64,000 bases of DNA from Psammoneis japonica (taxonomy: Eukaryota), in assembly GCA_008632985.1 (NCBI GenBank), contig QPGO01000076.1, forward strand, positions 310,001 to 374,000, in the 5' to 3' direction. The position numbers and the translations under genes are program-made. The stretch's first letter is position 1; each line of letters starts with the position of its first letter. This document shows positions 118 to 34,600 of the stretch, one piece after another. The notes under the pieces are model-generated. The model saw only the letters and a list, made by a program, of their open reading frames with translations. It searched no databases and had not been told where the DNA came from.

Positions 118-2730
118 TTATTGAACCCTTCTTTCTCGGTAGTATCCATGACAGTCGCTTGGATCCTGGCCGACATCAAGATTCAGACGCGGCAGTTCCT
201 TTTCTTGCGTAACAATGTCATGAACAAGGACAGTGTGCCTCTTCATGGTCATAACATCATTGTCGAACACGAGACTTCGGGCATCCATGTTTGAGTAGCT
301 CCAACAGCCGCCCATGATTTCGGTTCCATCGGCGTGTGATATTGAGAAACGAGGAGCGATTTCGTCCACTGAAACATTGTAGACGAAGAAACCGTCAAAG
401 GGTTCCTCTTTGTCATCTCTTGATCCCCACTGTGTGACAGGAATGATCAGGACCTTGTTAATATCGAGGTAACGAAACGCCTGATGGTCATATTCGGCTG
501 AGCTCGAAGCATGATCGTCGACGAAGTTCTGCAGTCTACGCGGATTTGCAAGATCCGCTACGTCGAAAAGAGAGATCTGCAGGCCACCACGCCACCCTTC
601 ATCAGGATCAACATACTGACCAACCCCAAGAATAACCGATCCATCAATTGGGTGGAGGTAACTACTGTAGCCAGGAATCTTTAGCTCGCCAACCATTGAC
701 GGATTGAATGGATCACTCATTTCAATCGTGTAGAAAGGATCTACTTGCCGGAACGTTACGACAAATCCACGAAGATCGATAAACCGGACAGAGTAAATGC
801 GTTCTGTGACACCGAGGCCGTCTACCAAACCCACGATAGTCAAGTTGGAGCTACTACCTTCAGCCGGGAGAGACAAGACCGTGACCTGGCTCGATGATGT
901 GTCACGAGGACGCCAGAAAAGAGGTCCACCTTGGGGCGCATTTTCCTGCTCCCATTCTGTCTCTTTTGTGGTAGCAACGCGCAAATAGTCGATGCCATCA
1001 ACTTGGTAAATGTCCAATGAGAACTGATTCAAGACATAACCAGGAACGCTTCCAACGGCCACGGCCCTGGTGGTCGCATTAAAGAACTCAAACACAAATA
1101 AAAACGTTTCTTCGTCCCAGACGCTTCGCCTCACTTCATTCCATCCTTGAGATGACATAATGAGAAAATTCTTGCTGCCATAGATGGTACTGAGCCGGTT
1201 TGACATGAGCAAACTTTTGGTGGATGTTGGAAAGCTAGTCTCGTTTACATCCCTCACATCGAAACTTGTTATTAAGGTCACATGTCCAAGGACCTGGCCT
1301 CCTGCAAACCAAAGCTCGTGCATGTCAGTCTCGTTGAAATCCGACGTCTGCAAAAGAGCAAGTCGGACAATGTCGTCACATATGGAACTTTCCATAGCTG
1401 CCAAGATTTCATCTCGCAAATTGCAAGCAAAGACCTCCAGTTTTTCTTCCACCATAGCTTCGGCCGCAATTCGAAACTCATACTCGGGAAGGTCTCGAGG
1501 ATATAGGGAGAAATCATATCGATCGACAAAGCTCAAGAATGATTTGTAACTGTCAATATTACTGGATGTGATGACGTGAATGAATTGGCCAATTGCACGA
1601 CCATTCAAGTACATCCCTGGGATATCTCTTCTTCCCATGAGTGACAACGGTGATCCATCCGTTGGAATATTTGAAACGTCGTAGACATATACTCTTGTAC
1701 TCTGCGGTGACAAAATGGGGTGCAAATCATCTGCGGGGTCTGAATATCCTGGCTCATAGAAAGAGCACTCTCCTGAAGCGATCACGACGAGCTGCTCATC
1801 ATGGAGCAATAGGCCTGCAATATTTGAATAGCAGTGAAACGAGTCGCCTCTAATTGAATTCTCGTCTTCTTCTATTACAGTTCTAATGTTCTCCATATCT
1901 TCCAAGCTGACAACTGGGATCCTTGTACGGCTTTTGAGTTCAAGTGTCTTCACCTCCCACACTACAACCTCGTTGCCATATTTAGCAAAGACATGGTTTC
2001 CATCTGACTTGACGGAGTCAGGTTCATCCACGCCCTTGACCTGATTGTTCGAAAGGAAACTATCTTCACCACCGCCAGATTCACCACCGCCAAATGTAGG
2101 CGACCCTGGCGCCGGCACCGGCCTCTCCGCTACGGGCGCACCATCAACTTCGCATTCCCAGCATCCTCCACCTCCCCCATACTGGTACCGCCTACCGTGA
2201 TAGTACGCTTGAGCACCGGTTTCGATCGCAAAATTAGCCATGTACTTGAGAGCGAGACGTAAATCGTTCTCAAACTCGCTGCAGTTCTTGTATGGCTCCA
2301 AGATCTCTGGACCAAAACCGTTCAGTTCTACTGCAAAGGAACCGCCCCCGGCCGAATCACCCCCTTCGTCCTTTGTAAGCCCAAAACCGAGTCCAAACGC
2401 CAAACCCACAGCTGCGACTAGTAGAATGATCAAAACACCAACGACGGACTTAGGTCTTTCCGTAATTCTCTGTAGAAATGATTTCGGCGCACGGGCATTG
2501 TCGATTTCTTCGACATTGCTTCTTGCCGATTCCAAGACTTCTTTGTCGTCTTTTGAGATAGTGCTCTGCTTCATGTCCTCTTTAGCAACTCCTACATCGA
2601 TGGCAACATTGCCAGCCTCGGCGTCACTTTCGTTCTCTGTTACTTCCATCTTCATGTAAACGCTATCCTTGTGGAGATTGTACGATTGAATGTCAGATTG
2701 AATGTGTTCGCAGTTCGCAAGTTTTCGCAT
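118..2730 (-). CDS. Membrane-anchored protein with C-terminal beta-propeller (Beta_propel / PF09826-like)
   Basis: Intact ~870-aa ORF with first ATG at 2730 (alternative 2655). One N-terminal TM helix (VVGVLIILLVAAVGLAFGLGFGL). Family motifs NNQVKGVDEPDSVKSDG, GYVLNQFSLD, LRVATT, ERIYSVRF...FVVTFRQVDPFYTIE, GELKIPGYSSYLHP. Confidence 0.85.
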   Translation of the reverse strand: MRKLANCEHIQSDIQSYNLHKDSVYMKMEVTENESDAEAGNVAIDVGVAKEDMKQSTISKDDKEVLESARSNVEEIDNARAPKSFLQRITERPKSVVGVLIILLVAAVGLAFGLGFGLTKDEGGDSAGGGSFAVELNGFGPEILEPYKNCSEFENDLRLALKYMANFAIETGAQAYYHGRRYQYGGGGGCWECEVDGAPVAERPVPAPGSPTFGGGESGGGEDSFLSNNQVKGVDEPDSVKSDGNHVFAKYGNEVVVWEVKTLELKSRTRIPVVSLEDMENIRTVIEEDENSIRGDSFHCYSNIAGLLLHDEQLVVIASGECSFYEPGYSDPADDLHPILSPQSTRVYVYDVSNIPTDGSPLSLMGRRDIPGMYLNGRAIGQFIHVITSSNIDSYKSFLSFVDRYDFSLYPRDLPEYEFRIAAEAMVEEKLEVFACNLRDEILAAMESSICDDIVRLALLQTSDFNETDMHELWFAGGQVLGHVTLITSFDVRDVNETSFPTSTKSLLMSNRLSTIYGSKNFLIMSSQGWNEVRRSVWDEETFLFVFEFFNATTRAVAVGSVPGYVLNQFSLDIYQVDGIDYLRVATTKETEWEQENAPQGGPLFWRPRDTSSSQVTVLSLPAEGSSSNLTIVGLVDGLGVTERIYSVRFIDLRGFVVTFRQVDPFYTIEMSDPFNPSMVGELKIPGYSSYLHPIDGSVILGVGQYVDPDEGWRGGLQISLFDVADLANPRRLQNFVDDHASSSAEYDHQAFRYLDINKVLIIPVTQWGSRDDKEEPFDGFFVYNVSVDEIAPRFSISHADGTEIMGGCWSYSNMDARSLVFDNDVMTMKRHTVLVHDIVTQEKELPRLNLDVGQDPSDCHGYYRERRVQ

Positions 2731-2781
2731 CCTCACATCGGTACACGGTGTATTTATTTGTTCGCGAAGATGCAGTCGTGG

Positions 2782-2966
2782 CGAGTAAATCTGGATGGAG
2801 GGCTATGTTATAATTTGGTGATTGGTTAAGATATATGGATCGAGTGGTGCTGCAGCGACACGCTCACAATCTAATCAGGTTTAGGTTCGCATTGACAGCG
2901 TCACTACTTTCTATTTAGACTTAAAAGGCATCGTGCTTGTTCTTTCGTTGCATCGAGATTTATTCG
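2782..2966 (+). repeat. 5' LTR (TpA retained)
   Basis: 185 bp, CGAGTAAATCT...AGATTTATTCG (11-bp terminal inverted repeat with 1 mismatch). Aligns to 9470-9652. Confidence 0.92.
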
Positions 2967-2969
2967 CTT

Positions 2970-2980
2970 TATCAGAGCCA
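2970..2980 (+). promoter_or_regulatory. Primer binding site complementary to the initiator tRNA-Met 3' region
   Basis: TATCAGAGCCA, 3 nt after the 5' LTR. Matches the canonical TGGTATCAGAGCCA PBS except for the first 3 nt. Confidence 0.65.
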
Positions 2981-3426
2981 AGACGAAAAAGACAGAGCGA
3001 AATGGTTTCGAATACAATTCGTCATGGACGATTGTTTGTTGTGTTGTTTGCATGGAACGTGCAGCTGCAGAAACGGCACTGAACTGTGCTCGATGCGTCA
3101 GAATTCGGATTGATGCGCACGATGATGCGTCTCGTGTCACTTGTTATAATGTCCACAAAAACAGCTTGCAATGGTAACACTCGCAAAGACAGTCACTATC
3201 CTCACATGTGCAACGGGTGTGAAGGGACTGCGGCATTGGGCGACATGCCCGAGCGTGTGCTCAACAATGTCGGTTGACATGAACGACACAGGACTGATCA
3301 CCCTGACGTCGGGTGGCTGTGTGAACCCGTTGTCACAACACAGAGAAAGTGCAGCCATCATGACCATGCAGACTCACAGCTGTGTGTTCCCGGTGCGGGA
3401 CCTTTGCACCCTTTCTCCATCACAGG

Positions 3427-4971
3427 ATGGCAGCAGCGGCAGCACCAGCAGCAGCACTTGCGGCGCTGGCCGCGGCAGCTGACGTTGACGCAGTTTCACA
3501 AGTTTGTGGTGTTGCTGACCAGAATGCAAGGGCGAGGTTGGTCTTCTATGAAGGGTTCACGACTTTGGAAAACATCGCAGTGATGGAGAGTGATCATGAT
3601 GTGGAAGATGTGGTGCAGAGGGCGTCTCGTCGCACGGTGGCCGACGGACGTGTGACTCTTGGGACTGTTCAGATCAAGAACTTGCAGGCGCTAGCATGGT
3701 GGTGCCAGGATTTGCTCAGACGGAATCAGCCATTGGTTGCGGCAGACTTTAATGCAGCAGCCACAGCTGCGGCCCGGAATGGCAGGCGCATCGAAAAGGA
3801 GCGCACGGATTCGGACGCGTCGGCAAGCGGTCTCGTAAAGTTCAAGCCCGATGACTTCGATGTGTGCGAAGATGCTTTCTTGAATCTCTTGGCACAGAAA
3901 TTTGGTGTGTTGAAAGAACCCCTTCGCCATGTTGTGAGGACAATTCCAGCTCCGGCTGCATTCACGGATGCTCAACAACAGCGCATGCACCAGATGCCAT
4001 TGAATGGCGCCGCATGTGACGAGGACAACCGCAGCGTTCACCGTGTGTTGAAGGAACACTTGGTCGACACGGCAGGATGGGCATGGATCAAACTGTTCAA
4101 CGTGACAGAAGACGGACGTGGAGCATTCAACGCATGGGTTGACCATTGCAATGGACAGGGCGAGTTGAGCAAGCGCATCCATCTGGCTGCGGCAACTGTT
4201 GAAACCTTGTTTTGTAAAAAGGAAGGATCGCTCCCGTTCGAAAAGTTCAATGAGAAACTTGCCAGTGCTTTCGCTGCTTTGAACAAATCACCGGATGACC
4301 ACAAATCTGAACGACAGAAAGTTGACATTCTTCTAAAAGGGATCCGAACGGATGACACTCGTCTCATTGCAGCAACGGCTGTCATTGGCAGTCAGCGCCC
4401 TCGTGACTTCACGGGGGCATGTGCTTGTTTCTCATCCGAAGTCTCTCGTTTGCATGCAGGTGCTCAGTTGGAAGCCCGGCGTCACTCGAAGCGCAAGATT
4501 TCTGAAATGAGCCGTGGTGGCAGTGGTGGCCGCGGTTTTTATCGAGGTCGCGGTCGCGGAGGAAGATTTGGACATGGGGGTGGACGCGGACGTGGTGGTG
4601 GCCGTCAAGGCAGAGGTGGCGACCACACTACGATGATCAATGGAGTCGATGCATCCGACCCTACAAGGAGCTTCAGTGCTCAAGAATGGGAAAAGTTGCA
4701 GCACAATGGGGGCATGAGCTGCGTGTTCCAAGCTCGCGAACGAATGGGTCATGGACGCGGTGGTGGCCGTGGGTCTCCCGCAGGTCAACAAGGACGCGAT
4801 GGGGGCGGCAGGCATGCAGCTGAAGCCCAAGTCTGTCAAGATGGCCAAGGCCAAACCCAACAACAGGATCAGGAGCAAAGGAGTGGCGGGCGTGGTCGCG
4901 GCGCTGACCGGGATCACGGTGGACGCAATGGACACGCCTTCGGTCGGGGAGCCTACAATGGTTCCACCTGA
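3427..4971 (+). CDS. gag: Copia gag-like protein (Tyr-depleted)
   Basis: ORF from ATG 3427 after the PBS, with a Gly/Arg (RGG)-rich C-terminus. Only 3 Tyr in ~514 aa. Confidence 0.8.
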   Translation: MAAAAAPAAALAALAAAADVDAVSQVCGVADQNARARLVFYEGFTTLENIAVMESDHDVEDVVQRASRRTVADGRVTLGTVQIKNLQALAWWCQDLLRRNQPLVAADFNAAATAAARNGRRIEKERTDSDASASGLVKFKPDDFDVCEDAFLNLLAQKFGVLKEPLRHVVRTIPAPAAFTDAQQQRMHQMPLNGAACDEDNRSVHRVLKEHLVDTAGWAWIKLFNVTEDGRGAFNAWVDHCNGQGELSKRIHLAAATVETLFCKKEGSLPFEKFNEKLASAFAALNKSPDDHKSERQKVDILLKGIRTDDTRLIAATAVIGSQRPRDFTGACACFSSEVSRLHAGAQLEARRHSKRKISEMSRGGSGGRGFYRGRGRGGRFGHGGGRGRGGGRQGRGGDHTTMINGVDASDPTRSFSAQEWEKLQHNGGMSCVFQARERMGHGRGGGRGSPAGQQGRDGGGRHAAEAQVCQDGQGQTQQQDQEQRSGGRGRGADRDHGGRNGHAFGRGAYNGST

Positions 4972-5051
4972 CTCCTTGGGGTGGCAACAGCTGCTGGAGC
5001 ATTGGCGCATTTGGCACACTTGTCGTTTTTGCTTGTGTTGCTCTTCTTGCT

Positions 5052-8000
5052 GTGTTGACCAAACCCCACCCAACATCTCGTTTCAAAGGAAAGGCGACAA
5101 AGAGGCACATTGCCGTGACATCAAAACGTGTGATCCGATCGACGAGTTCTGCACAGATGACAAATTTGATGACACCTGGGTTTGTCGCTCAAAATGAATG
5201 TGATGCTCACGCGGACACTTGTTGCGCTGGGGCGAACTGGAAGCTCATGGAGATGACAAATGAAGTGTGTGAGGTACATCCATTTCTGGACTCTTGTGAG
5301 CCGATCAAACAGATTCCTGTGGCACGTTGTTGCACCGCATGGACAGATCCGGAAACGACTCGTGAACATTTGCTGGTTGGTGATCAAATGCTCTGGTTTG
5401 GGACCGACATGGAACACTCACTTTTGAATCCTAACCAACTCCGTGCGTGCAACATGCCCGCACACGACAACCCTTGCGACACCCGAAACGGATTTGGCAT
5501 TGAAGCTGATGAAGCTTTCATCCCTTTCAACACCACGGGGACAATTGTGTCTTTCAAGTCTCGTGTTCCAGCGGATTGGGAAGTGCAGAACTTGCCGGTC
5601 ATGCTGTTGACAGGTGACGCATGGGATCCAGCACAGACAGACATGGGCTCACCGGAGCGCGCTAGAGAGCAGGCGGAGATGCGCACTGTTCGATCATTGG
5701 CCTCTGGCATGCGACAAGAACAGGTCTCGGAATTAAGGAGCGAGAAGGCAAAGTCCCAAGCAGCACGCTGGGGCGAGGTCGAAATGCAACTGTCGTCTGC
5801 ATCTCCCATCTGTCAACTTCAATCATTTTGCGACAGGCTTGTCAGCTCAGTGAACGTGGCTTGCACACATCGCGACGACGTGGACAAGAGGCAGAGGGCA
5901 GTCAAAGATTTGTGTGGCAAGGATCGGCACTCGAAGGTTGACGCTGAAGAGCTGGCCCGAAAATGGAATGTCGGTTTAGAAACGGCAAAAGACACTCTCA
6001 ATGTAACAACTCAGCGCGGTGTACAAACGGCGACCCAGCCGATGTCACGAAGAGTGAGGGTGGATCATCTTGACTTGCATCGGAAGCGTCTGAAAGGAAC
6101 ATGGTTTGTGGACACTTTGACATCCAAGGTGAAGTCTTTGCTCGGTGACACGTGTGCCAATGTTTGTGCTCAGGGCAAATTCGTGAAGGTTGCGCCGATG
6201 ACCGCCAGGTCGGAGGCAGGTTCATCTCTTGTTGAATTCACAGACGACATGGGTGCACCAGAACATCTTATGTCAGACGGGGCAGGAGAGTTCACTGGAA
6301 GGAGCACCGAATTTGTGAGACACGCACGATGTATGAGAATGCAATCAAGAACATCAGAGCAGGGTCGGAAGAACCAGAACCAGGCAGCGGAGCGTGAAAT
6401 TGGTTTCTCAGCCAAACGTTGGCGGCTGCGGATGACGAAGAAGAAGGCACCAAAGCGATTGTGGGATTTTGGTCTTGTTTGCGAGTCGGAATTAGTGTCA
6501 TGCATGGCAAGAGGCAGGGATGAGAGGACTGGATGTGAAGAGGTCACTGGGCAGACACCAGAGACAGGCAAGCATTTGGATTTTGGTTTCTGCGACATGG
6601 CATGGTGGTGGGACAGGCCCAACAAGCCGAGTGCAACTGACAATCCTCGAAGGCTTGGACGGTGGCTTGGTGTCTCACACAAAGTTGGCTCGGATGTGTG
6701 CCATTGGATTGTTGCGGAAAGCGGGAAGATTGTCTCCAAAACATCGGTCGAGCACGTGACACAGGCTGATGTGGTGCAACCGGACATTCGCGTCAAGGTC
6801 GACAACTTTAATGAGCAGCTGGAGAAGCAATTGGACGATGCCAACTTTGTCTTAAAAGGCGATGAAGCTGTGCCCACATTCGTGTTGGACGATCTTGCAA
6901 TTGACGGCAACCTTGGTGTGGAGTGTGAGGGCGGCATCACGCCAGAGGACGAAGAATGTGGCAACATGCCATCACCCGACGAGTGACCAGACGACGATGA
7001 CGAGCAGGCAATCGATCAACACCTGGGAATGGAACTCATGTTTGACATCGGAACCAACGGCGAGCGACGTGGTGTTGTGATGAAACATGCAAGAGGACAG
7101 GATGGGCGTCCAATTGGGACTCGGCAACAAAACCCATTGTTTGACACTCGCAAATGCGAAGTGGAACATGCCGACGGAACCACAGACAAGTGTGCAGCCA
7201 ATGTTGTTGCCGAGAACATGTTTGCTCAGGTCGACAGTGAGGGCAACCAGCATTCTATCTTGCATGAAATGCAGGACCACGAGAGGAGTGACGATGCGGT
7301 GTCGATTGCTGATGGCACCGTACGAACCGCTGACGGGAAGGAGAAGAAGAAGATCACAACAAAAGGATGGAAGTCATTGGTCGGATGGAAGGATGGCTGC
7401 TCATCTTGGGTCAAACTCAAAGATCTAAAGGACTCTAACCCCACTGAAGTTGCTGAGCATGCTGTTGCGAACAGGTTGACGGAAGAACCTGCTTTTGCTT
7501 GGTGGGTCACACATGTCCCACGCAAACGGAACCGCATCACATCCAAGGTCAAGAAGAAGTGCTGGTGCACGACTCACAAGTTTGGGGTCTGATTGCCCAA
7601 GTCCACGGAGGACGCTTTGCGGATTGATCAGGAAACGGGGACAGATTGTTGGGCTCGTGCAATCAACAAGGAGATGGCAAAGGCAAAGGTGGCATGGTGC
7701 GAGCACGAAGCTGAAACCCCTCAAGTGGTCCGGGAAGGCAAGAGTGCAACTTTGCGTGGTTGTCAGGAGATCAGGTGCCACATGGTGTTCGACATTAAAA
7801 TGGATTTCACCAGAAAGGCAAGGTTTGTAGCTGGCGGACACACGACAGAGGCCCCGGCATCGATCACTTGCTCCAGCGTGGTTTCCAGAGACAGTGTGCG
7901 ACTTGGATTCTTGTTGGCAGCCTTGAATGGCATCGATGTTGCGGCAATTGATCTGGAGAATGCTTGTCTCAATGCACCGTGCGCAGAAAAGACATGGTTT

Positions 8001-9305
8001 GAAGGCGGAAAGGAATGCGGCGAGTGTGAAGGAAAGGTGCTCATTGTCACTCGGGCGTCACATGGCTCAAAGAGCTCGGGATGCTCTTGGAGGTCTGCAC
8101 TGTCATCGGTCTTGCATGACTCAGGCTTCGAATCAACGAGAGCGGACCCAGATGTCCACTTGCGTGCGGCGACTCGTGAGGATGGGCACGAGTGTTGTGA
8201 AATGCTTTTGGTTTGTGTCGATGACACACCAATCATTTCCCATCAAGGGAAGTCCATTGTTGCTGCAGTGGGTGAACACTGTGCCATGAAGCCCGGCAGT
8301 GAAGGAGAACCAGAAGTTCATCTTGGAGCTAACATTGAGAAGGTTCAGACTCAGGATGGGCACACAATCTGGGCGAGTTCACCGAGGTCACATGTCAAAT
8401 CGGCGATTGAGACTGTGGAAGGCCTGTTGGATGAAGACGGCAATGGAGAGGTTCTGAAGAACAGTGCAAAGGATCCACCACCCCTGAAATGCAAACCGGA
8501 ACTGGACGTGACGGACGAGTTAGGTCCCGACTTGGTGGACAGGCATTTGCAGCTGACAGGGATTTGTCGTTGGGCGATCGAGTTGGGTCGCATCGACATC
8601 TTGCATGAGGTTTCAATCCCATCTCAACATCAAGCTAATCCAAGGAAAGGACATCTTGAGGCATTGCATCGTGCACTTGCGTGTGTGAAGAAACACCAGA
8701 ACGTCGGACGCATCGGATTTGATCCAAAGGAACCGGTGATTGATGAATCTGTTTTCAATTCAAACGCAGACTGGACCGAGTTTTACGGGGACGTCGAGGA
8801 GGAACTGCCGCCACGGGCACTGAAGCCTCGTGGCAATCCGGCGAACATCTGTGCATTTGTTGACGCTAACCATGCAGGGAATGTTGTCACTCGCAGGTCG
8901 CATGGCGGGATTCTGACATTCGTCAATGACGAGCCAGTGGTGTGGTTCAGCAAGCGGCAGAACATGGTGGAATCGGCAACGTTTGGAAGTGAATTGGTTG
9001 CAGTGCGGATTTGTAAGGAATTGATTGTTGCTTTGCATTGCAAGCTTCACATGTTTGGGGTTCCCCTTGAAGGACCGGCAAGTGTCTTTTGTGACAATCG
9101 CGGTGTTGTGAAGAACGCAAGTGTGCCCGAGTCGGTTTTGCACAAGAAGCACAATGCCATCAACTGCCATGTTGTGCGAGAAGCGGTCGCAGCGGGAATT
9201 GTTCGTGTTGGCAAGGAGGACACGGAAACGAACTTGGCCGATCTACTTACGAAGGTGGTTGCAGGAGAGCGGCGATGGAAGCTTTGCTCGTGCATTTTTT
9301 GGCAA
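5052..9305 (+). pseudogene. pol: Copia pol (protease, integrase, RT, RNase H) pseudogene
   Basis: Protease DAHADTCC. Integrase SDGAGEF...NQAAEREI. RT CHMVFDIKMDFTRKARFVAGGH and LVCVDD (YVDD motif, 8214-8225). RNase H FVDANHAG...ESATFGSEL...NLADLLTK. In-frame TGA stops at 6984-6986 and 7590-7592. Likely original stop TAA now reads CAA (9303-9305). Confidence 0.93.
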
Positions 9306-9469
9306 TGTCCCGACACCAAGGCCAGGCACCTGTGGCTCGTGTCCACGTGTCGTGGCCTCCCAAGCCAGCACATCTGGTGGTTTAATTTGGGTTCTTGTGG
9401 TTTGCCTCTCTGTGAGAGGATGTTGCATGTTTGGACGAATCGGCATTGCCATTGCCGTTTCGCGGGGAC

Positions 9470-9652
9470 TGAGTAAATCTGGATGGAGGGCTGTGTCATA
9501 ATTTGGTGATTGGTTGAGACACATGGATCGAGTGGTGCTGCAGCGACATGCTCACAATCTAATCAGGTTTGGGTTCGCATTGACAGCGTCACCACTTTCT
9601 GTTTAGACTTGAGGCATCGTGCTTGTTCTTTCATTGCATCGAGATTCATTCG
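9470..9652 (+). repeat. 3' LTR (TpA-mutated copy)
   Basis: Aligns end to end with 2782-2966, with 13 substitutions and one 2-bp indel. Confidence 0.92.
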
Positions 9653-9815
9653 GTGGATGTGTGATTCCCCAAATTTGTCGTTGCTGACCCTGTCGAATGA
9701 TCCTGCCTGCCACACAAACAGCAACCTGATGAACGTGCACATGCCAAAGGAATCATTGCATGAACATTCATCAGTGTGACAGACTGGTGGCTGTGATGCT
9801 GCTGCCATCAGAAGG

Positions 9816-9940
9816 CTGCTCACACCCAGGCAGGGAGAAAGTGACAATGCAGATTGTTTGGCACACAGGCAGAGCTGCGGCCCAAGCAACTCGACAGTCT
9901 GCTCACACCCGCTCAGGGAGAAAGTGACAACGCAGATTTG
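9816..9940 (+). repeat. Short direct duplication (~40 bp x2)
   Basis: CTGCTCACACCC..CAGGGAGAAAGTGACAA.GCAGATT at ~9816 and ~9899. Confidence 0.7.
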
Positions 9941-10374
9941 CGCAGAGCCCGTTGGTCTGCGGCATTTTCAGCACATGTTTTACATGCGCAATTTTCTGCA
10001 CACTTCACAACAGCACACCCTCTCCCCAAAGTTTGAAAAATGAGAGCGCGCGCTGTCATGACTCACATGGATCCTGCGTGTGGTCATGAATCTGCAAATC
10101 GACAACCGGCCATGGCAGCAAAAGACTTTGCCCTGTTGGCCGATGACAGCAGCTCAATGCATGGTGAAACCTGCCATCCTTCTGGTTGGTCAAGGTGGGG
10201 TTTTATTTGGGTGCAGCTTGAGTTTCGTGATTGCGAGTGTGCTGCCACGAATCTGCTGCATCCAGAATGCTGAGCTGCTGGTGTGTTGTTTTGTGTTGTG
10301 TGCACGCATGTCACAAACTTGCTTTTCTGCAGCATTGGCACAATCACGCACATCAGAGTTTTGCACCCAAAATC

Positions 10375-10680
10375 ATCACAAGTTGCCACAAACTGCACTG
10401 TTCAAACAAGGCATGCACAAAAAGAGGTTCATTGGTTTTTGGTGCATTCGCCAACAACACATCCATCTTCTCCAATTTCTACATCCAGATCCAGAAAGAC
10501 TGCAGGTGGTGCTTGTTGCTGCAGCTCTCAGAGTTGCACACATGAAAAGTTCTTTGCCACATGTGACACTCTTCAAAAAAGGCATGCACAGAAAGAGCTT
10601 CATTTGTTTTTGATGTGTTCACTTGTGTTGCACCCGTCTTCTCCAATTTCTGTGTCCAGATCCAGAAAGGCTGCAGAGCT
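10375..10680 (+). repeat. Diverged tandem duplication (~170-bp period)
   Basis: TTCAAA.AAGGCATGCACA.AAAGAG.TTCATT...TCTTCTCCAATTTCT...TCCAGATCCAGAAAG.CTGCAG at ~10401 and ~10572. Confidence 0.75.
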
Positions 10681-11039
10681 GAGAGTGGGAAGGCAACCCA
10701 TTGGAGGTTGCCTGAGTTGTTGGGCTCATTTTTAAAGACTTCCTAAGTCTCTCTGCTGTTTGTGGTCCATGCTCTAAACATGTCATCAATGAACCATCCA
10801 CAGCATGGGAGGTGCGGGGCAAATTCAGTCATTGCCACATGACTTTGTTGTTCACGCAGCGCCTTGTGCAGTGTGGCACACATGCAGGTGGTGCTTGTTC
10901 CCACAGCTGTTCCAGTGAGTGCATTGTGTGGCACTTAAAATGTTTTTTGCTTGCTCACATGCTTTCTTTCTGCATTTTCTTTGAGTTGCAGGGGAGGAGC
11001 TGGGTGCTTGACGTCTCACACCGCACACCGACACCCATG

Positions 11040-11420
11040 TTGCTCCGGAATCAGTGGCGCCAGATGCACTGATGCACCGGCAAGTGTGTGTTGCAGTTCA
11101 TGTCAGTGCATCTACATTGTGCTCTCACAATGTGCACTGTGCTTTTTGGCAATGAACAAGGTGGATCAGAGGAGCAACAGCACTTCTGCTGCAAACTCGC
11201 CTGCTCCAGAATCAGTGGCATTGGACACACTGACATGTCCATGTTGCCATTCCTGTGGGTTGTGTTGGTTGACACTCTCACAATGTGTTTTGCTCTTTTT
11301 GGCAACATGTGAGGTGGAACAGAGCAATGGCACTTCAAACACTAAAACAGCAGCTCCTGCTGCAAACACACCTGTTCCAGAATCAGCAGTGCCAGATGCA
11401 CCTGTCGACCTGTGTTTGTG
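11040..11420 (+). repeat. Diverged tandem repeat, ~165-bp unit, 2-3 copies
   Basis: TCC(G/A)GAATCAG...(C/G)AGA motif at ~11045, ~11205 and ~11376. CTCTCACAATGTG...TTTTTGGCAA...AGGTGGA repeated at ~11122 and ~11275. Confidence 0.65.
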
Positions 11421-13534
11421 AGTGTGAGCCTTGGTGGACCAAGGAGGGCAGTGATGCCATTTAACTCCCACGCCGGTGTCAACTGGAGTGCTGTTGGCAG
11501 CATCTCCACTTGGCTTGTTTTGTGTCTCTGGATGGCAAGCCTTGGGCATCATGGTGTTGTTTCCATCTGCGTTGTTTAAATTAAATGCAAACAACAAAAT
11601 AGAATGTGCACAATGCAAATGATTTTAAATTGCAGGTTTTGCAGGAATTGAGGGCGGGCACTCTCACAGGGAAAATGGTTGGCTGTTTCACAGCGAATGG
11701 TGTTGTCTCACAGGACAGCAGTGGGCTCCACAGCAATGAAGTTTGTGTCTTTCATGGTTGACAAAATGTCACCACACACACAACTGACAAGGTTTGAAGC
11801 CACAAAATTTTTAACTGTGACAGATTGAAAAATTCACTGCAAGAAAGTCAGTCTGATCACTGCGCTGCGCGCTCTGATGGACAATGCCCTGCTTTTGAAT
11901 GCAGCCAATGACATGTGGATTGCTTTCAATGCACAGCCCACATTTTGATTTTATTTCTTGCAAAAGTTGGCTGCAATCTTGATTGGTCTGTGGACGCTGC
12001 ACACACACGCTGAACAAATGAGAAATGAGTCCTGTGGACTTGGTGCAGCGAGAGACAGTTTTTTTTGTTTTTTTGGTTTCCAAAGATGTTTGTTTTTGTG
12101 TGTGGTCATCACTTTGGGGCAGTTTTCTTCTTGTTGAGAAAATGTTGTGCCCTGGCTGGAGCATGGGCAACTCACTTTTTTTTTAAACCTTTTCTTTGTG
12201 GCATTTTTTTGTGGCAGAGTTCAAGACAATTGTTGTGCATGTGACTGTGAACAACATCATGTGAGTCAACAAAGTTGTCATTGTTTTGTGGGTCACCTGG
12301 TGCTGGAGCGTGCCCCAGAAAGGTGCCATTCGCCAGCAACAGTGGTGTGCCAGAGCTCCCAGCAAATTTGAAGAAAGTTGGCCCAGAAACCACCCCAGAG
12401 AACACAAAGGAGAGATCACAGGCTGTTTTTAGAGCCAGCAGCAGCAGCAGCCGCAGCAGCTGACCCAGAAACATGCTCTCACCCCAGAAGCATGTGTGGT
12501 GAGCAATGAAGCACCGTGCACCACCTCTTCCAGAGCCCCCCTCCCACGGCATTCTTTTCGAGCGACGGCACCTTCTCTCAAATGCTGGTGCCTCCCATGC
12601 ACGTGTTTCAGCTGATTTCCAAACTTCAAAGCACCTGACCTCTACGGTGACATCTGCTCTAGAACATGACAAGCATGGAATACATGCAGTCTTGTTGGCA
12701 TCACTGTTCACAATAAAACTCTGCCACATGTTGTCCCAGCGGTGGATGCGATGCGAGAGATGTGGCGGCCGCCTGAACCCGACAAGGCCAGACGGATGAT
12801 TTTAGTCCAATTAATCAACTGAAATCGAATATGACGTCAGCTCGTGCTGAAAAACTTGGCGAGCGCAATTGATTCGTGATGTCCATTGTACAGAGCTCTC
12901 CTACTAGGACGCAACGGGCAAATGTGTCACTCACAGAAATCAAACAGCCCCAATACGAAGCTCGCGCTTTTCATCGCACTCTCCATCAACGCGGAAGCAA
13001 CACGACTTTTATTGTTCTCACTTCTCGTTCATCAGGCGCTTTGTGAAGGGAAGTCAGTGCTGACCGGTTGCTCTTTCGTCTGTGATTACACGGAAAGACA
13101 ATGGCGGTGCGAACGTTCGACACTGATACGGCGGGCCAGCGGGTAACGACGCTGGTGCTTTCTAAAAAGAATGTGTTGGATTAGGACGAGGAGTTTCTAC
13201 TTTTGATGCTCGTCGGGTGCGGCCCACCTACACAAATATCACGTTCTCCTCGTACGTCAATCGAGAATTGATCCAGAATCCTTGAGTCAGGACTGGGTTG
13301 AAAAACGACTTGCTCCCTCCCCCCCCCAAACTTTTGTGGCTCAGCGGACGCCTTACCAAACCTTTGTGTTTGGACCGTTAGAGATGGACGTCTCGACCTA
13401 TCTGTTCTTTACGTTTTTTCGTTCGTTTTGCCCTGTCGTCTACCCAAAAGAAACTCACAAACTCGTTGTCTCCTTGTATCTCTCAACAGATTGTCACGTA
13501 CGATGGTGGTGAAGAAGAAGCTCGTAGGCAGGCG

Positions 13535-14182
13535 ATGCTTTCGAAAATTCGGGAATTGCACTTTTGGATCAAGCTCGCATTCGCACGGATCAGTGTCGTG
13601 GAGGAATTGAAGGCTCGTTTGATGGAGCGGAAAAGAGTCAAGTCGACACGAAAGCGAGCGCTGGTACTTTTGAAAAACGCTGTCAAGAAACGGCTGATAT
13701 TCGATCGTAAGACTGACAAAAAGGCAATGAAGGATTACACGGGTGGTGGCTATAAGCAGATGAATTCCGCCTTGCGCTCTGGAAAGCTGAGTCCAGAAAT
13801 AAAAGCCCGTGTGGATGCCGTTATCAAGGCGATGGGCAAGTCGCGGAATTGTCCAGTGTTTCAAGGTACAGTCCACCGGGGCACCAACATTAGTGGAGCG
13901 CGTTTCAATTCGTTGTGTCCTGGAGCCACCTTCATGGACCCGGCTTTTTTGAGTACATCTCTGAGAAAGCATGTTGCTTGTAATAAATTCGGTATAAGCA
14001 AGAATGCACTATTCAAGATTGAAAGTCGATCGGGTGTGAACGTGACGAAACAATCCAAATTCAAGAGTGAGTCGGAAATTCTTTTTCGACCTGGTACTTT
14101 GTTTATGATCACGGCGGTTGAGGAACACGACGATCCCGTGTGTGGAAAGCGGAAGTTTGTTTCAATGCGAGAGATTCATTAA
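13535..14182 (+). CDS. R-S-E type mono-ADP-ribosyltransferase (VIP2/ART-like)
   Basis: Motifs YTGGGYKQMNSALR, VHRG (catalytic R), FLSTS (STS), ESEILF (ExE). First ATG at 13535. An in-frame acceptor (CAACAG, 13489) suggests an unresolved upstream exon. Confidence 0.85.
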   Translation: MLSKIRELHFWIKLAFARISVVEELKARLMERKRVKSTRKRALVLLKNAVKKRLIFDRKTDKKAMKDYTGGGYKQMNSALRSGKLSPEIKARVDAVIKAMGKSRNCPVFQGTVHRGTNISGARFNSLCPGATFMDPAFLSTSLRKHVACNKFGISKNALFKIESRSGVNVTKQSKFKSESEILFRPGTLFMITAVEEHDDPVCGKRKFVSMREIH

Positions 14183-19229: not shown

Positions 19230-21465
19230 GTGTTGTGTTAAAAAATCAATGATGATTGTTCCATGTTCTGTCAGAATTCTACAGAGGAAATTATCTGCTC
19301 GAACTCGGTCATGTCATGTGCCAGCAGGCCAGGTGGGGCTAGTTGGTCGCGCACATTTGGGTTCGATCTGATGGGCAACTGGGGTCCTGGCTGGCTCAAG
19401 CCAGAGCCATGATGCCCTGCATGAAAAGCTGTTCTTGGTCGTGCGAGCAGAAGTGCAAGACATGCGCACAACACCGCAAGCCCTCGTTTCAGAGCAAAAA
19501 AAACATGGCGTGAGACAGTGCGTCATAAAATGACATGACAACAAGCAATGAGAAAGGCCCCAACTTGACACAGGGATGAAGCACACAAATGTTGTCCAAT
19601 CTGTTTGATCTCATGTCTCATCGGAAAATGCCGGCTTGCAGATCAGCAAACGGTGTGCTCAAGTTGCTCTCCATGGTGCTGTTGGGCACTGCCATCAAGC
19701 ACCTGCTGTTTGCCACTCTCCATTGTGAGTCCATGCGTTGACCATTGTGCACGAGTTTTGCACACCCAGCCACCTTGTGGACTCTCAGAGAACACAGAAA
19801 TGTGGTGTGTGTTCTGGCACCCTCTGGTGTGTTTTGTGCAGAAGTCTGTGCAGAAACATTTTTGCGTGTGCAGAAATGTGCCAGAATCTGTGAGAGCACC
19901 AGACACATTGCCTGCACATGACCCTGGCACATTGTCCGCCTGCATTCTCTGAGAGTCTGTGAGGCAACACCAGCCAGGTGTGCAAAGCTTGTGTGCAACT
20001 GTCGACGCACAGACTCTCTCGATGGAGAGTGGCTGTTTGCATGTGAAGGACAGCGCATCTGTTTTGCCAACAGTGACTCTGTTTTGGTGATGGCAGATGT
20101 TTCACTGCATTCAATCTGAAAACATTTTGAGAAGTGCTTCAGAGGCAACCCTGTTTGGACCGTCAAACAGAAATTTTTTGTGCAGATTCCAGAGTTCTTT
20201 GGGGTTGTTTTGCAACATTTTGGAGTTGGTGCATGATGCAGATGTTAACCCTGCAACCACTGGACTTGAGCAAATCTCCATGGGTGGAGATTTGCTCACT
20301 TTCTTCACAAATGTAAAAAACAAAATGTTCTCAGATGTGGACAATGAAGAGCTCGTGCGATTTTTTGTTTTGGAGTGCACATTTGCCGAAAATTCCAAGG
20401 GATGACCATTCTTGCAATTTAGAAAGTTCAATGTCAACTTTTGATGCCAGGTTTTTTTTTGTGCTTCATCTGTGAACAAAGAGAAGCCAAATCTCAACCT
20501 TTGACAATGAAGCCTGTGATGAGCTGCTGTCACAATGACAACAAGCAAGTGCATGTGGGGTGTGCTGTTTTGCGCAGATTGCTCATGATGTGACATTTTT
20601 GTGCTGCGTGCATTGTGTTGACATGCAAATGCATGACACATCACAACCCCTCAAGTGGAGCAAATTTCCACCCACTGAGATTTGCTCCATGGTGGTTGAA
20701 GGGTCAAGAGCAATGGAAAATTCAATGATGTGCAAAAGCTCAATGAGCCAACATGATTTCATCTTCCCTGCAGAGCCTGCAGATTGAGCACTGGCAAAAA
20801 TCCACCACTTGTCAACTCAATCAGCAGCAGTTCTGTGCACACTCTGCTTGCGCCTCACACATGCCTGCACTGTCTGACAACTGTGCACTGTGTGTGTGAG
20901 ATCACAATTGCTTGAAAGTTCTTTGTCAGTGGAAATGTGCAGCCACACACTTTTCAGTGTTGAACATTAAAACATCGGGACTTGATTGATCTGTGTCGTT
21001 GATGAGCAAGTGGTGAGTGGCAGCGGCAGCAATGGCTCTGCTGTTGGCTCTCTAGAGTGTGGCTGCTCTCTGCTCCAGAGAGCAGCGCCAGTGACAGAGA
21101 GCTTTTTGAGTTGAAACAAGTGGTTTTTGTGAAGTTTTGTCATGTCATGATGTGGTTGATGGTTTGGCATTGGAGAGCAGCAGGGTCGCGGCAAGCTGGT
21201 GGTTTGTGGCTTGCTTGCTCAGGTGGCGGATGACCATCCTTGTGAAGGAATCTGTGAGAAGCACCAAGATGATGACATCTTTTGCTTTTTGTTCTGCTGC
21301 CACAAAAAAAACACTGCTCTCTCTCTCTCTCTCTCGAATGAATGAACAGAATCGGCGCAGCCGATTCTCCGTCAAATGTGGCTGACAAGATGCAGCAGCC
21401 AAGACAGAGCCGCTGTTCGGACAGTTGTCCAACTGTTTGGACAAATGGCAGGCACAATGGCTTTG

Positions 21466-21496
<31 letters not shown>

Positions 21497-21800
21497 TTGC
21501 CGCACACTTTCAAAGTGCCAAGTGGCGTTGGTCCAACTTGGCTCGCTTGCCACAGCACGGTGCAGCAGTTTGTTGGTTGTTGCACTGCTGGAATGTTGCT
21601 GCTTTGCAGGCTTTTAGACTGGCTGTGATGCACTGCAACTGACCATCTCGAGCTAGACTCACAGCAGCAGGCAGATGTTGCACCCACAGCGCCCTTTTCT
21701 CCGGCTCCTAGCTAGCTGCTGTAGTGCACGGCAGCAGCAGAGAGAGCACCACTCTGTCCGCAGAGCGAGAGAGCGAGCCACACGCCACACGCATCCACAA
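19230..21800. other. TpA-depleted degenerate block
   Basis: TA near-absent, no intact ORF. Contains (CT)n tracts at ~21317 and ~21465. Confidence 0.6.
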
Positions 21801-25314: not shown

Positions 25315-25329
25315 GCAGCAGTCCTAATT

Positions 25330-28300
25330 GCACGTGGGTGCCGTGGTGGGGCTCAGGGCTGCTGCTTTGCCAAGATCGGTGCTTTTGCTGGCAGCGATTG
25401 TCGTCGTGTTGTGTTGCTTGGCTTGATGCTTGATGGCAAGGCTGTTTCTTTTGCTTTTTTTTGTCAGCCAGCATTGAAACAGCCACTCAACTCCTCCTGC
25501 TGCAAGAGAGCAACTCTTGACACTCCTCTTGTTGCTTCATGTGCTGCCTCTTGTTTGAGGCTTTTTGTTCAGCCACACACCTCTTTCCTCTTTCCTGCAC
25601 TCAACAAAAGATGGCTCAACTTTTCTCCTGAAAGAAAGGGGGGTTGCTTGCAAGCCCAAGATTTGTTGTCATGTGTTTGAGGGGGCAGAGCTCTGGAAGC
25701 TGCAAAAGCTGACAAGTGCAGCCCAAGAACCAAGCACAAAAGCCATCATGAATCCACCACAAGGCAGGTGCTTGCACCATGAATGCAAAAGGCTTCTTGT
25801 TTTTGTTTTTGTACAATGACGAGGGAAAGAAGGGGCACTTGGCTCTGTTGAATCATTCAAAAGTCTGGTTGCTGAGTGAGCAGCACGTGCCGCCAAGTTG
25901 CAACCTTTCTCCTCAACAAACTAAAGTGTGATTGCCTGTGCAGGCCAAAATGATGGCTGCATTTGAAGAGTGGCTGGGCACAACCCAGCAACAAGCCACT
26001 TTTCAAACAAATGAAAATGGCGGTTTGCACCACAGTTGTCAACATGGTGAATGGCTGCCATGATGGCAAATGCCAGCAAGTGCACAGTCTGCAGCAGCCA
26101 AAGAGTGCACCTGGGTGTGTCTCATTCTGCTGCATTGAGCAACTTTCCCTGCACCGGCTGTGTGATCCTCTCCTGCAAAAGCGTTTCTGAGGCAATTTTC
26201 ATCATGCTGGGCCATGCACAAATTTGGCACCTGGTCTGTCTTTTTCAAAAAATGCACAGACTTCGGCCCTTTCCCAGGTGGGAGCGGACCTCATTGGATC
26301 ATGTCGCATTGTGACAGCTCCTGGTCTTCAAAGTGACGGGCATGGTCCACACTCACAGCATTGTTGTGTGCAGGCAGTGATGGTTTGGTGTGGCGCTGGC
26401 TGATGGCTCCTTTGGATGGGCTCTCATGACAAAAGGAGTGCTGCTGGCAGACCACAAAGGTGCAGTGTTTGGACAGCTGTGGTCTCATCACACCAAACAG
26501 AGGCTTGTGGCATGATGCTGCCCTTCTGTCATCTCACATTTCATTTTTTTTAGCTCTGTGGGGCAGTGGCCAGCAGTGCAGGAATGGCGCCAGCACTTGC
26601 AGCAACAATTTGTTGGCTGAAATGGTGAGTCAACTTGATTGACCATTCCTTGCTGCCAGCTCAAGCGCCATCACCACACAAATGAGACAGAGAAGCTGAC
26701 TTCCACATCATGCTCATCAATTTTTTTGGCAAATGCTCTCTCTCTAGACTGGGGTGCTGCCAAAAAAATTTGCAGTGCACTGGTCAAAATCAGGGCATGC
26801 AAACAAGTTGAGGGAACCTCCAGATCACTTGCAATTCTCAAGTGGGTGAAGGGTCATGAAGGCAGTCAAGCCCCAGCTCATGCACCCTTCTGTGGAAAAT
26901 GACAACAAACACCAGACCCAACAAGATTGCTGTGGCAACTGCCATGGCATGTGCTCATGCTGGACCACATTTTGCTCCTGGATTCCCACACAGCTCTTGA
27001 GCCTCATTGTTGGCAAAGCTGCTTTGGCATCCTGCTGCAAGATGAAAATTTGATTGCAGCTTTTGCCCCCTTCTTTGACACACACACACACACAAAAGCA
27101 CCCACAGACAGATTGAGCTTGTGTGACCAAAATTGACTGGAAAGTGCTCATGGCTCTCACAAGCCATCACATCAGAAAACAAGTGGTGTCCACCACAAAA
27201 CTTGAGCAAGACCTCTCTCCTCCTCTTCCCACCAGCAAGATTGCACACTCCTGACGCAGCTCAGCATGACCACCAGACTGCTCCTTTGTTCAAGCAAAGC
27301 ATGAAGGAGAGGCAAAGGCACATGTGCTGCACAGAGTGAAGACAACTGCCAGTTGCTTTGGTTGGGTGCCACAAAGTCAGCACTGGGACAGGCCAGTCTG
27401 CTTTCAATTTTGTCTTGCTGCTGTGCCATGTGCTGAAAGTGTGGGTCAGCCTGCTGCTGGGAGTGGCTGGGAGCGTTCTTGCCTTGGTGCACTGCAGGGT
27501 CTTTGGGAGCAAACATGGGCATCCTCCACCAGTTTGTTGCAAGGCTTGCTCTTCTGGCATGCAGACAATCTCCAAGTGGATCAATGGACTTGACACAATC
27601 ATCCAAGTTGACACTGTGCAGCAGCTGATGCTTGGGTGGTGGGTTGTGCACCTCTTTTTCTTCTTGCTCAGGAGTGGCACAAGCAAGTCCAGGATTCTTG
27701 AGTTTTGGGGGCTTTGTGTGATGCATTTTGGTTTGTGACAATGGCAGCAAAGTCTGGCATGCTGTTGTTGTGCAACACACAAGAACATGTGCAGCACCAA
27801 GTCCTTGGTTCAAAGGCAGGGTGATCAAAGTAGATCTCAAAAAACTTCAGGGGCAAAAGAAGCAATCAAAACACAAGTGGTTTGTTGCGTCCTCCTTTGC
27901 ATTGGCCAGAGCAGCTCTTTGCACTTTCAGCAACACAAAAGATGATCTTTGCTGTTGGTGTTTGGTCAACCACTGGCATCCCTTCTTGGAAATGTCTTTG
28001 GGAGAGCAGGAGAGGAAGAGAAGGCTTGCCGCCCTTTCCAGATTTCCAGCCTTGAGCTTGGGCATGTTTTGCTTCAAAGGATGTCTTTTCGCTGGCACGT
28101 GCATGCAAACATGCAGCTGAAACACTAAATCAACAATCAAACTGGCAACAAAGGAGGCAGCATTTGTCTTGGCAGCCATGCCAAATTGCTTGTCACTTGA
28201 CAAAAAAGAATGACATTCAACCTCAGCAAAACAGAGGAGCAAAGAGGCTCCCACAGCAAGAGAGGTGGAGCTGGCGCTGGCAGAGGCAGCAGCCAAGCTG

Positions 28301-34300: not shown

Positions 34301-34600
34301 TTTTAAAGTGCGGTCACTCCCTTGCCGGCCATGCCAATGCAGACTAACCCACACTCCCAGGCACTGAGTGTTCTGTTTGACCATGCAGCCTCATGGCTTC
34401 CTGAAGCTGGGGAGGAGTGAAGTGGCCCAACGACCCCTCCACTCACGAGGAGTCTGTCTTTCATTTGCATTTCAGCTCTGAAAAAATAACCCAATTCGAT
34501 TCATCGTGTGTGCGCAGGTCCGTCATTTGCACAGAAGTGAGCCACTCTGATCCGCCACTTTGCTCAGTTTTCCAAAGATTCGTTCAACGAAAAAAAAATC
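25330..34600. other. Large TpA- and CpG-depleted domain containing decayed coding sequence
   Basis: Kilobase stretches with almost no TA or CG, strong TG/CA excess and many Cys/His/Gln-rich spurious ORFs. Contains a GT61 pseudogene. Confidence 0.75.
31458..32696 (-). pseudogene. Glycosyltransferase family 61 (DUF563)-like pseudogene
   Basis: N-terminal anchor MVLALLLVGLAALAAFG, HNHGATCFHFICEVL (eroded NYFHF-like motif), IGGHGAGLTNMLW...VVE. Single frame with TGA stops at 32244-32246 and 32145-32147. Confidence 0.75.

Follow-up and report, generated by a model that had tools for sequence, protein, structure and literature searches.

This study concerns a Ty1/Copia retrotransposon, bounded by a pair of long terminal repeats (LTRs), in a 64,000-bp stretch of the diatom Psammoneis japonica (contig QPGO01000076.1, positions 310,001 to 374,000 of the forward strand; hereafter the window). 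Our results favour the reading that, after insertion, the element, its 3' LTR and the adjoining repeats underwent mutation of TpA to TpG or CpA at the DNA level, confined to a domain of the chromosome. We put the probability of this reading at roughly 0.85. In the proposed course of events, the element would have inserted 52 bp upstream of the first ATG of a diatom gene. A DNA-level process acting in sharply bounded domains would then have turned TpA into TpG or CpA, which amounts to an A>G change on either strand. The element interior, the 3' LTR and the repeats beyond (3198-12642) would have been mutated, and the 5' LTR, together with the next ~230 bp, beside the host gene, would have stayed outside the domain and retained their TpA. 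Decay of CpG to TpG or CpA would have acted in the same domains at about one third of the per-site rate of TpA.

Differences between the two LTRs

We aligned the 5' LTR (2782-2966, 185 nt) globally with the 3' LTR (9470-9652, 183 nt). The two copies differed by 13 substitutions, all of them transitions, and a single 2-bp gap. This reproduced exactly the tally that the original prediction had obtained by eye: five changes of TA to TG, five of TA to CA, three at CpG and none in any other context. A blastn comparison of the window with itself paired 2783-2966 with 9471-9652 at 92.4% identity over 184 nt. In the coordinates of the 5' LTR, TA of the 5' copy reads TG in the 3' copy at 2805, 2828, 2883, 2913 and 2923, the last being counted as TA>TG only when the 2-bp gap is set immediately after the changed base. 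TA reads CA at 2809, 2832, 2834, 2905 and 2961. CG reads TG at 2782, the first base of the LTR, and at 2861, and CA at 2947. From the 5' to the 3' LTR, the dinucleotide counts changed from 14 to 4 for TA, from 10 to 7 for CG, from 14 to 21 for TG and from 10 to 16 for CA.

All 13 substitutions fell within the 48 positions belonging to a TA or CG dinucleotide, and the remaining 137 positions carried none (Fisher p = 7e-9). Every one of the ten differences at A/T sites lay at TpA, divided equally between TG and CA. The direction was uniform as well, TG or CA being in the 3' copy in 13/13 cases (sign test p = 2.4e-4). A 4-bp direct repeat, GTGG, on both flanks of the element fits one insertion event.

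Per-site change in the 3' LTR was 1.25 for TpA (10/14) and 0.36 for CpG (3/10). The other aligned sites, about 135, showed no change, which sets a 95% upper bound of 0.022 for the pair and less than 0.011 per lineage. The TpA rate therefore exceeded the background more than 100-fold, and the CpG rate more than 30-fold. The Kimura two-parameter distance of the pair over all sites was 0.077. Compared with the background bound of 0.022, this distance overstates the age of the LTRs at least 3.5-fold, which bears out an earlier warning that LTR divergence would badly overestimate the age of this element. The frameshift-free pol frame agrees with a young insertion.

Ancestral state of the changed sites

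The 6.5 kb between the LTRs has the features of a Ty1/Copia retrotransposon: a Copia-type reverse transcriptase (ORF, open reading frame, 7593-9476; Pfam RVT_2, E = 2.2e-9), direct LTRs and a flanking target-site repeat. An exhaustive phmmer search returned 25,710 relatives at E <= 0.001, the best of them with 58-68% identity. A single tblastn high-scoring pair linked 5139-9302, in one frame, to a 1353-aa relative with no frameshift over 4.2 kb, and the Pol frame was broken solely by in-frame TGA at 6984-6986 and 7590-7592. Neither integrase nor RNase H gave a Pfam match in the four element ORFs scanned, which fits heavy mutation. Comparing the window with itself by blastn revealed the LTR pair, two short tandem repeats and no further copy of the family. 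Next to the 5' LTR lies a 9-mer that we take to resemble the tRNA-iMet-type primer-binding site of Ty1/copia elements. Nine-mers with one mismatch to it (for example at 11871 and 39675, with CA for TA) numbered 8 in the window against 10.9 expected in shuffles, and are not evidence.

Loss of tyrosine from the element's proteins gave the direction of change. Tyr made up 0-0.6% of the element's four ORFs, 2.2-3.9% of the host genes in the window and 2.8-5.8% of the first 60 database relatives. We called a column conserved when at least 70% of at least 20 relatives agreed; the 40 closest relatives (61-68% identity) yielded 480 such columns, and the element retained the conserved residue in 397 of them. 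At the 21 conserved-Tyr columns, Tyr was kept once, and was replaced by Cys (TGY) 13 times and by His (CAY) 7 times (Fisher test against other residues, p = 1e-15). The result held with 80 relatives (1/21 kept, 12 Cys, 5 His) and with 258 relatives (1/25 kept, 14 Cys, 7 His). In the active-site motif of the reverse transcriptase, the codon at 8214, which encodes the Tyr of YVDD in relatives, was TGT, and the next conserved Ile had become ACA. Overall, 47 of the 83 changed conserved columns required no step other than TA>TG/CA or CG>TG/CA. Since conserved Tyr codons now read TGY or CAY, TA is the ancestral state in the element's coding region, and TG and CA are its products on the two strands.

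The two products were not exactly balanced on the sense strand. TG and CA numbered 617 and 550 in the element interior (p = 0.053), and 479 and 376 in a second TA-poor domain carrying another Copia relic (domain 6 in Table 1; p = 5e-4). For Tyr>Cys against Tyr>His, 13 versus 7, p was 0.26. The excess of sense-strand TG is suggestive only.

Copies related to the element were compared through contigs derived from sequencing reads. The reads came from three runs (X1-X3) of one sample in one public study. Run X1 held 0.51 of the sampled words, and X2 and X3 held nearly nothing of the stretch. A total of 3809 k-mer contigs (Logan) aligned on 2000-13500 at >= 80% likeness, and the variants listed from them are 40 of 1279. 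Summed word depth, which is not a copy number, was 1240-6070 over 2768-11983, 112-144 over the flanking gene and 63-104 at 11984-12751. The high depth over the element relative to the gene indicates that the element belongs to a multi-copy family. Among the variants listed, 6521-6522 was TG in this copy and CA in 9/9 related contigs, and 10973-10974 was CA in this copy and TG in 12/12. At 13121-13122, TG stood for CA in a minority of X1 contig depth (2 contigs) and in the sole X2 contig. At 6346, this copy had CA where TA was kept in 9/9 related contigs. TG and CA are each one step from TA, so these swaps between copies imply TA ancestors. A further site, 2899 (9587 in the 3' LTR), had C in a CpG in both LTRs and T in 21/21 related contigs at 2899; either CpG has decayed in the other copies, or the C is a state specific to the lineage of this element.

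That TA is ancestral had been proposed in the original prediction, and is supported by the Tyr columns, by the TG/CA swaps in related contigs and by the position of the 3' LTR inside a TA-poor domain. The prediction had also named the opposite case, in which the 3' LTR is ancestral and the 5' LTR gained TA through C>T changes at CpA/TpG, as in repeat-induced point mutation (RIP). Taken by themselves, the ten TA versus TG/CA differences are direction-free, and the 5' LTR is dense in TA (76 per kb, against ~40 per kb in the flank). Yet the Tyr columns contradict a gain of TA, since conserved Tyr codons can become TGY or CAY only by TA loss. An interior with 5-9 TpA per kb and a Tyr-free polymerase cannot be native, the swaps between copies imply TA ancestors, and the three CpG sites would demand a second process in the other LTR. 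We consider such a gain of TA very improbable.

Editing before integration is hardly more credible. Under this alternative, ADAR-like conversion of A to I on the RNA, or deamination of the cDNA, would have been copied into the genome. Retroelements are classic targets of editing enzymes, and the Discussion of a recent preprint on Bigelowiella natans (Mettrop et al., bioRxiv 10.64898/2026.01.13.699255) refers to a 5' U preference of ADAR. In our data, the changes begin inside the element and continue 3 kb beyond it. They hit both strands, as seen in the even LTR split and in the occurrence of both Tyr>Cys and Tyr>His. The sister LTRs differ as well. Because a single template supplies both LTRs of an insertion, editing of RNA or cDNA before integration cannot make them differ. 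These observations uphold the earlier proposal of post-insertion change at the level of DNA.

We also considered systematic errors of base calling or assembly, in which TA and CG at modified bases are read as TG or CA. Modified DNA can give motif-specific consensus errors in long-read-only assemblies, and the single run that covers the stretch is perhaps from the source sample. The TA-poor sequence is, however, present in k-mer contigs built from reads: X1 contigs with a depth of 63-65 reproduced 9557-9975 with 1 difference in 419 nt and 11818-12802 with 1 difference in 985 nt, so that neither the assembler nor noisy base calling generated it. As clean substitutions, the changes keep a 4.2-kb reading frame in register, and Tyr-free Copia ORFs with the same Tyr>Cys/His pattern occur in five other public assemblies. 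An artefact is thus a very remote explanation.

Among the 269 database relatives examined, 6 had less than 1.5% Tyr. Five of these six, from ENA, JGI and Logan assemblies (P0288, P0199, P0204, P0206 and P0263) carried His or Cys at 8-17 conserved-Tyr columns each and retained most of the conserved W, G and D columns. Their presence in other assemblies suggests that the process is not peculiar to this locus. The Tyr-free Copia ORFs also included P0390, beside P0199, and P0391, beside P0206. The sister copies P0199 and P0390, at 94% identity, differed by C/H, T/M and L/S pairs; these are alternative products of one TA, which indicates independent hits on two copies. A search of metagenome contigs with the P0199 pattern gave 67 matches, none of which was confirmed.

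TA-poor domains and the asymmetry of the LTRs

We segmented the window with a two-state hidden Markov model (HMM) on TpA positions, alongside a 1-kb table of counts. Six TA-poor domains covered 30,686 of the 64,000 bp (48%; Table 1). They had 1.9-6.5 TpA per kb, with dinucleotide ratios (rho) of 0.03-0.11 for TA, 1.58-1.82 for TG+CA and 0.20-0.70 for CG. Gene-bearing segments had 40-48 TpA per kb, with rho TA of 0.56-0.68 and rho CG of 0.92-1.03. GC content was 0.48-0.52 in the domains and 0.46-0.47 in the flanks. TpA and CpG depletion increased in parallel across the six domains, TpA being ahead in every one. A TpA bias of the whole genome was rejected because of the rho TA of the gene-bearing segments. 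Foreign DNA that innately avoids TA was also rejected, given that the two LTRs are not alike and that the loss of Tyr codons occurred in situ.

Table 1. Coordinates of the element, its flanks and the TA-poor domains within the window.
Feature	Position	Strand	Remarks
Intact host gene, PF09826 beta-propeller	118-2730	-	Pfam E = 6.9e-101; TA 38-44 per kb
Left GTGG flanking repeat, target-site-duplication-like	2778-2781		partner 9653-9656
5' LTR, presumed unmutated state	2782-2966	+	14 TpA, 10 CpG, GC 0.42; normal HMM segment 1-3197
Internal region, Ty1/Copia	2967-9469	+	Gag-side ORF 3364-4971; Pol frame 4908-9476
Primer-binding-site-like 9-mer, TA retained	2970-2978	+	sole exact match within window
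Domain 1	3198-12642		9.4 kb, TA 6.2 per kb, rho TA 0.11, rho CG 0.70, rho TG+CA 1.61
Reverse transcriptase active-site motif CVDD (relatives YVDD)	8214-8225	+	first position Y in 39/40 relatives
3' LTR, presumed mutated state	9470-9652	+	4 TpA, 7 CpG, 21 TG, 16 CA; within TA-poor domain 1
Right GTGG flanking repeat	9653-9656		partner 2778-2781
Domain 2	19341-21614		rho TA 0.04, rho CG 0.35
Domain 3	25326-34613		rho TA 0.04, rho CG 0.20; contains Tyr-poor GT61-like ORF
Domain 4	39600-42849		rho TA 0.10, rho CG 0.57
Domain 5	57206-59271		rho TA 0.03, rho CG 0.48
Domain 6	59638-64000		rho TA 0.05, rho CG 0.65; runs past window end

The left edge of domain 1, at ~3197, lies inside the element, ~230 bp beyond the 5' LTR and ~415 bp from the element's left end. 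Past the 5' LTR, TpA occurred at 2970, 3013, 3145, 3147, 3175 and 3197, and the next ones only at 3547 and 3692. To the right of the 3' LTR, domain 1 continues for another ~3 kb, where it takes in other repeats as well as DNA of single-copy depth. The 3' LTR thus lies deep in domain 1 and the 5' LTR outside it, and this difference in position accounts for the asymmetry of the pair. The other domain edges stop 118-660 bp short of gene starts. We infer that the domain corresponds to a silenced chromatin state, its edge set by the active promoter region of the neighbouring gene. The chemistry would be adenine deamination in a 5'-T context, by analogy with the proposal made for B. natans; the same outcome would follow if an oxidised or otherwise modified thymine in TpA mispaired.

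Several points weigh against the reading of post-insertion TpA mutation. The polarity of the ten LTR sites is carried over from the element's interior and from the position of the 3' LTR: these sites are absent from the 40 of 1279 variants listed, and a search for outgroup LTRs with a degenerate 24-nt motif drawn from the conserved core gave 0 matches in metagenome, genome and viral contig collections. The 2-bp indel separating the LTRs is polymorphic in the family (7 + 2 contigs are without the two bases at 2923/2925), and the two LTRs may therefore not be simple sisters. At site 2782/9470, the original state is ambiguous: the first bases of an LTR are usually TG, which is the 3' state, and CG at insertion is argued only by the terminal inverted repeat CGA...TCG. 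The remaining 36 of the 83 changed conserved columns lack the signature, as is expected at 61-68% identity to the relatives. Run X1 may be from the source sample of the assembly, and so not from an independent individual. Finally, for the claim that TpA loss outpaces CpG loss, the LTR contrast of 10/14 against 3/10 was by itself not significant (Fisher p = 0.095); the element interior agreed with the claim (rho TA and rho CG of domain 1, Table 1).

The polymorphic indel also favours a different history, in which both LTRs were hypermutated and the left ~415 bp (2782-3197) were later replaced, through gene conversion or recombination, by sequence from an unmutated family member. The LTR pair would then not be a clean control of equal age. 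The switch from TA-rich to TA-poor sequence is abrupt and lies inside the element, and the family has many related contigs (3809). GTGG on both flanks speaks against crossover between elements, though not against gene conversion. The intact gene start alongside is a simpler cause of escape, however, and the other domain edges similarly lie near gene starts. We therefore regard overwriting as unlikely, though less so than the other alternatives weighed above, and retain confinement of the mutation to a domain as the explanation of the LTR asymmetry.

To describe the sequence context, we compared the survival of TpA in the TA-poor islands with that in normal segments, which stand in for the starting composition of the islands, so that the ratios are a lead and not a measurement. 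Survival was 0 for ATAT, 0.012 for ATAC, 0.036 for ATAG, 0.062 for GTAC, 0.064 for ATAA, 0.095 for GTAA, 0.114 for CTAC, 0.16 for CTAG, 0.31 for CTAA and 0.40 for TTAA. By these ratios, TpA seems to be preferred when A precedes it or T follows it. Two of the four TpA surviving in the 3' LTR belong to the CTAA/TTAG class.

Among the island ORFs beyond the first Copia element (>9600), 4 of 71 had a Pfam match: two retroelement domains, one glycosyltransferase-61 (GT61) and one zf-MYND. The retroelement in domain 6 is a second, unrelated Copia relic (gag_pre-integrs and SH3_retrovirus; Tyr 0-0.3%), and none of the 258 relatives matched it (59638-64000) at E <= 1e-6. The GT61 ORF in domain 3 (31461-32144, minus strand; E = 8.7e-12) contained 0.4% Tyr and 7.9% His. 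It seems to be a fragment of a host-type gene that was also hypermutated, in which case the targets are wider than transposons.

Within domain 1, the segment 11984-12751 combined single-copy contig depth (63-104) with a TpA density of ~5 per kb. The domain thus reaches past the DNA that recurs at >= 80% likeness, which means that the process spreads or that the segment is an old diverged repeat. Tandem duplications at 9813-9938, 10383-10676 and 11122-11324 had periods of 83, 171 and 153 bp and 76-88% identity, with mostly TG/CA-type differences. They sit in the part of domain 1 with the greatest depth (summed depth 5757-6070 over 10064-10831), and the stretch may be a satellite-like or high-copy repeat. 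Over the whole of domain 1, the trinucleotides TAA, TAG and TGA numbered 31, 9 and 206 in 9.4 kb; the near absence of TAA and TAG gives rise to long spurious ORFs in all six frames. Between domains 5 and 6, a 366-bp TA-rich patch (59272-59637) had 76.5 TpA per kb, GC content of 0.39 and rho CG of 1.48. It lies just upstream of the second Copia relic, with a long inverted repeat at ~59440-59480, and may be a promoter or LTR-like piece that was spared, or may have been inserted later.

The host gene beside the 5' LTR is part of an intronless 894-aa ORF (118-2802, minus strand), whose first in-frame ATG is 52 bp from the LTR. PF09826 is a mostly prokaryotic family, and the gene may be an old horizontal acquisition. 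An ADP-ribosyltransferase ORF at 13382-14182 (plus strand; PF03496 E = 1.5e-12, PF01129 E = 2e-11) lies ~740 bp to the right of domain 1 and has normal TpA. The ordinary genes of the window are intron-poor and include an enolase, a Tic110-like protein and a sulfotransferase. For the enolase, the named matches among the 120 best relatives were all from diatoms (86-89% identity), and the top other match had 92% identity. The closest Tic110 cluster was mostly Bacillariophyta.

Comparison with known systems and implications

The closest parallel is the chlorarachniophyte B. natans. According to the preprint (bioRxiv 10.64898/2026.01.13.699255), two viral inserts acquired 231 new mutations in mutation-accumulation lines, and 230 of them were A>G or T>C changes, every one at TpA. 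This proves in real time the polarity that the original prediction had proposed. The inserts are an integrated giant-virus region (nucleocytoplasmic large DNA virus, NCLDV) and a virophage region, and the TpA rate was ~6e-7 per site per generation, a thousandfold above background. The preprint also describes 124 clusters of windows in that genome that are poor in TpA and rich in CpA+TpG, as well as an enrichment of RT (reverse transcriptase) and DDE domains among TpA-poor genes, and the authors propose an ADAT2-like adenine deaminase.

The likeness extends to AT>GC transitions that occur only at TpA, on either strand, in bounded regions of foreign or repeat origin and at rates orders of magnitude above background, and to a long-term signature in the form of clusters of 1-kb windows that have lost TpA and gained CpA+TpG. 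In our window, AT>GC change was likewise restricted to TpA, in bounded regions of high rate, in clusters of windows and on foreign or selfish targets (the two Copia relics). With the 5% cut-offs of the preprint, 26 of 64 1-kb windows passed, in runs of 2 to 8, on rho values that are calculated per strand here and may deviate slightly from those of the preprint. The two systems differ in lineage, B. natans being a rhizarian and our diatom a stramenopile. They differ also in target, which is NCLDV and virophage inserts for B. natans, compared with LTR retrotransposons and other repeats here. Depletion is near saturation here (rho TA 0.03-0.11) compared with the 0.45 given for the NCLDV region. 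CpG loss is coupled to TpA loss here, and de novo mutations were measured in B. natans, whereas the process here is deduced from sequence comparison. The words 'diatom', 'LTR', 'retrotransposon' and 'CpG' are absent from the main text of the preprint. General Pfam scans of the window's ORFs turned up no deaminase domain, a genome-wide deaminase search not having been made.

By contrast, the resemblance to fungal RIP is that of a mirror image. Both are transition-only, defence-like hypermutation of repeats at the DNA level, with a dinucleotide preference, strand symmetry and sharp limits, and both ruin transposon genes. Fungal RIP converts CpA/TpG to TpA by C>T, and AT content rises; here TpA becomes CpA/TpG by A>G with loss of Tyr codons, and GC content rises. 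Furthermore, RIP is triggered by duplication. Here, the duplicated 5' LTR, found in many related contigs, keeps its 14 TpA, and the stretch of single-copy depth at 11984-12751 is TA-poor. A RIP-like trigger by homology does not fit, as the 5' LTR that was spared is a repeat too.

Deamination of 5-methylcytosine is better regarded as a process acting alongside. Diatom LTR elements are CpG-methylated according to Maumus et al. 2009 (PMC2806351). Such deamination explains 3 of the 13 LTR differences and fits the shortage of CpG in the same domains (rho CG 0.20-0.70). It cannot yield the ten TpA changes, and TpA was lost faster than CpG. We therefore rejected CpG decay as the sole explanation, the differences not being limited to CG>TG/CA. 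APOBEC3 and ADAR hyperediting in animals shares deaminase-type transitions, nearest-neighbour preference and retroelement targets with our case. The animal enzymes work on RNA or cDNA prior to integration, show strand asymmetry and do not make the two LTRs diverge; in our element the LTRs are unlike and changes occur on both strands. In AID-driven somatic hypermutation of immunoglobulin genes, the work of a targeted deaminase, the mutated zone begins a few hundred bp into the transcription unit, which resembles the ~415 bp from the element's left end to domain 1. The substrate of AID is cytosine in WRC hot spots, and it acts in vertebrate B cells, unlike the TpA process here.

We found no report in the literature of TpA loss in diatom repeats, nor of such loss for LTR pairs or coupled to CpG loss. 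Maumus et al. 2009 contains neither 'TpA' nor 'dinucleotide'. Veluchamy 2015 (PMC4504042) mentions TA solely as a nucleosome-excluding step, and 'hypermutation' in the SPLASH paper refers to immunoglobulins. Our analysis, to the extent that sequence comparison allows, supports the occurrence of TpA>TpG/CpA hypermutation, known only from the B. natans preprint, in another lineage and with targets of a new class.

The LTR pair serves as a natural control that fixes the starting sequence, and shows a change that followed insertion, struck both strands of the DNA, kept to a bounded domain and ran at more than 100 times the background. For practical purposes, dating such elements by LTR divergence overestimates their age. 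Gene callers will over-predict genes in the islands, where TAA and TAG are scarce, and Tyr-free relics evade domain searches, as illustrated by RVT_2 being the sole match in 6.5 kb. A majority-rule consensus from hypermutated copies could falsely show TG or CA; TG in some copies and CA in others at one site points instead to a TA ancestor.

More broadly, and with a confidence somewhat short of even odds, we suggest that TpA-directed A>G hypermutation may be a genome defence targeted to chromatin domains, common to diatoms and chlorarachniophytes and possibly old in the SAR group (stramenopiles, alveolates and Rhizaria). This tentative proposal is to be taken as a whole. The defence would mirror fungal RIP without being triggered by homology, as one LTR of the pair escapes. 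It would saturate transposons before ordinary sites reach 2% divergence, alongside CpG decay, and it would depend on an extended context, ATAT being fastest and TTAA slowest, and stop a few hundred bp before the starts of active genes. If the proposal is true, eukaryotic heterochromatin would have to be the substrate of a DNA adenine deaminase or of an enzyme that modifies thymine. The known range of the process would widen from one alga to the diatoms, a major group of genetically tractable phytoplankton, in which knock-outs and chromatin maps could find the enzyme and its targeting signal.

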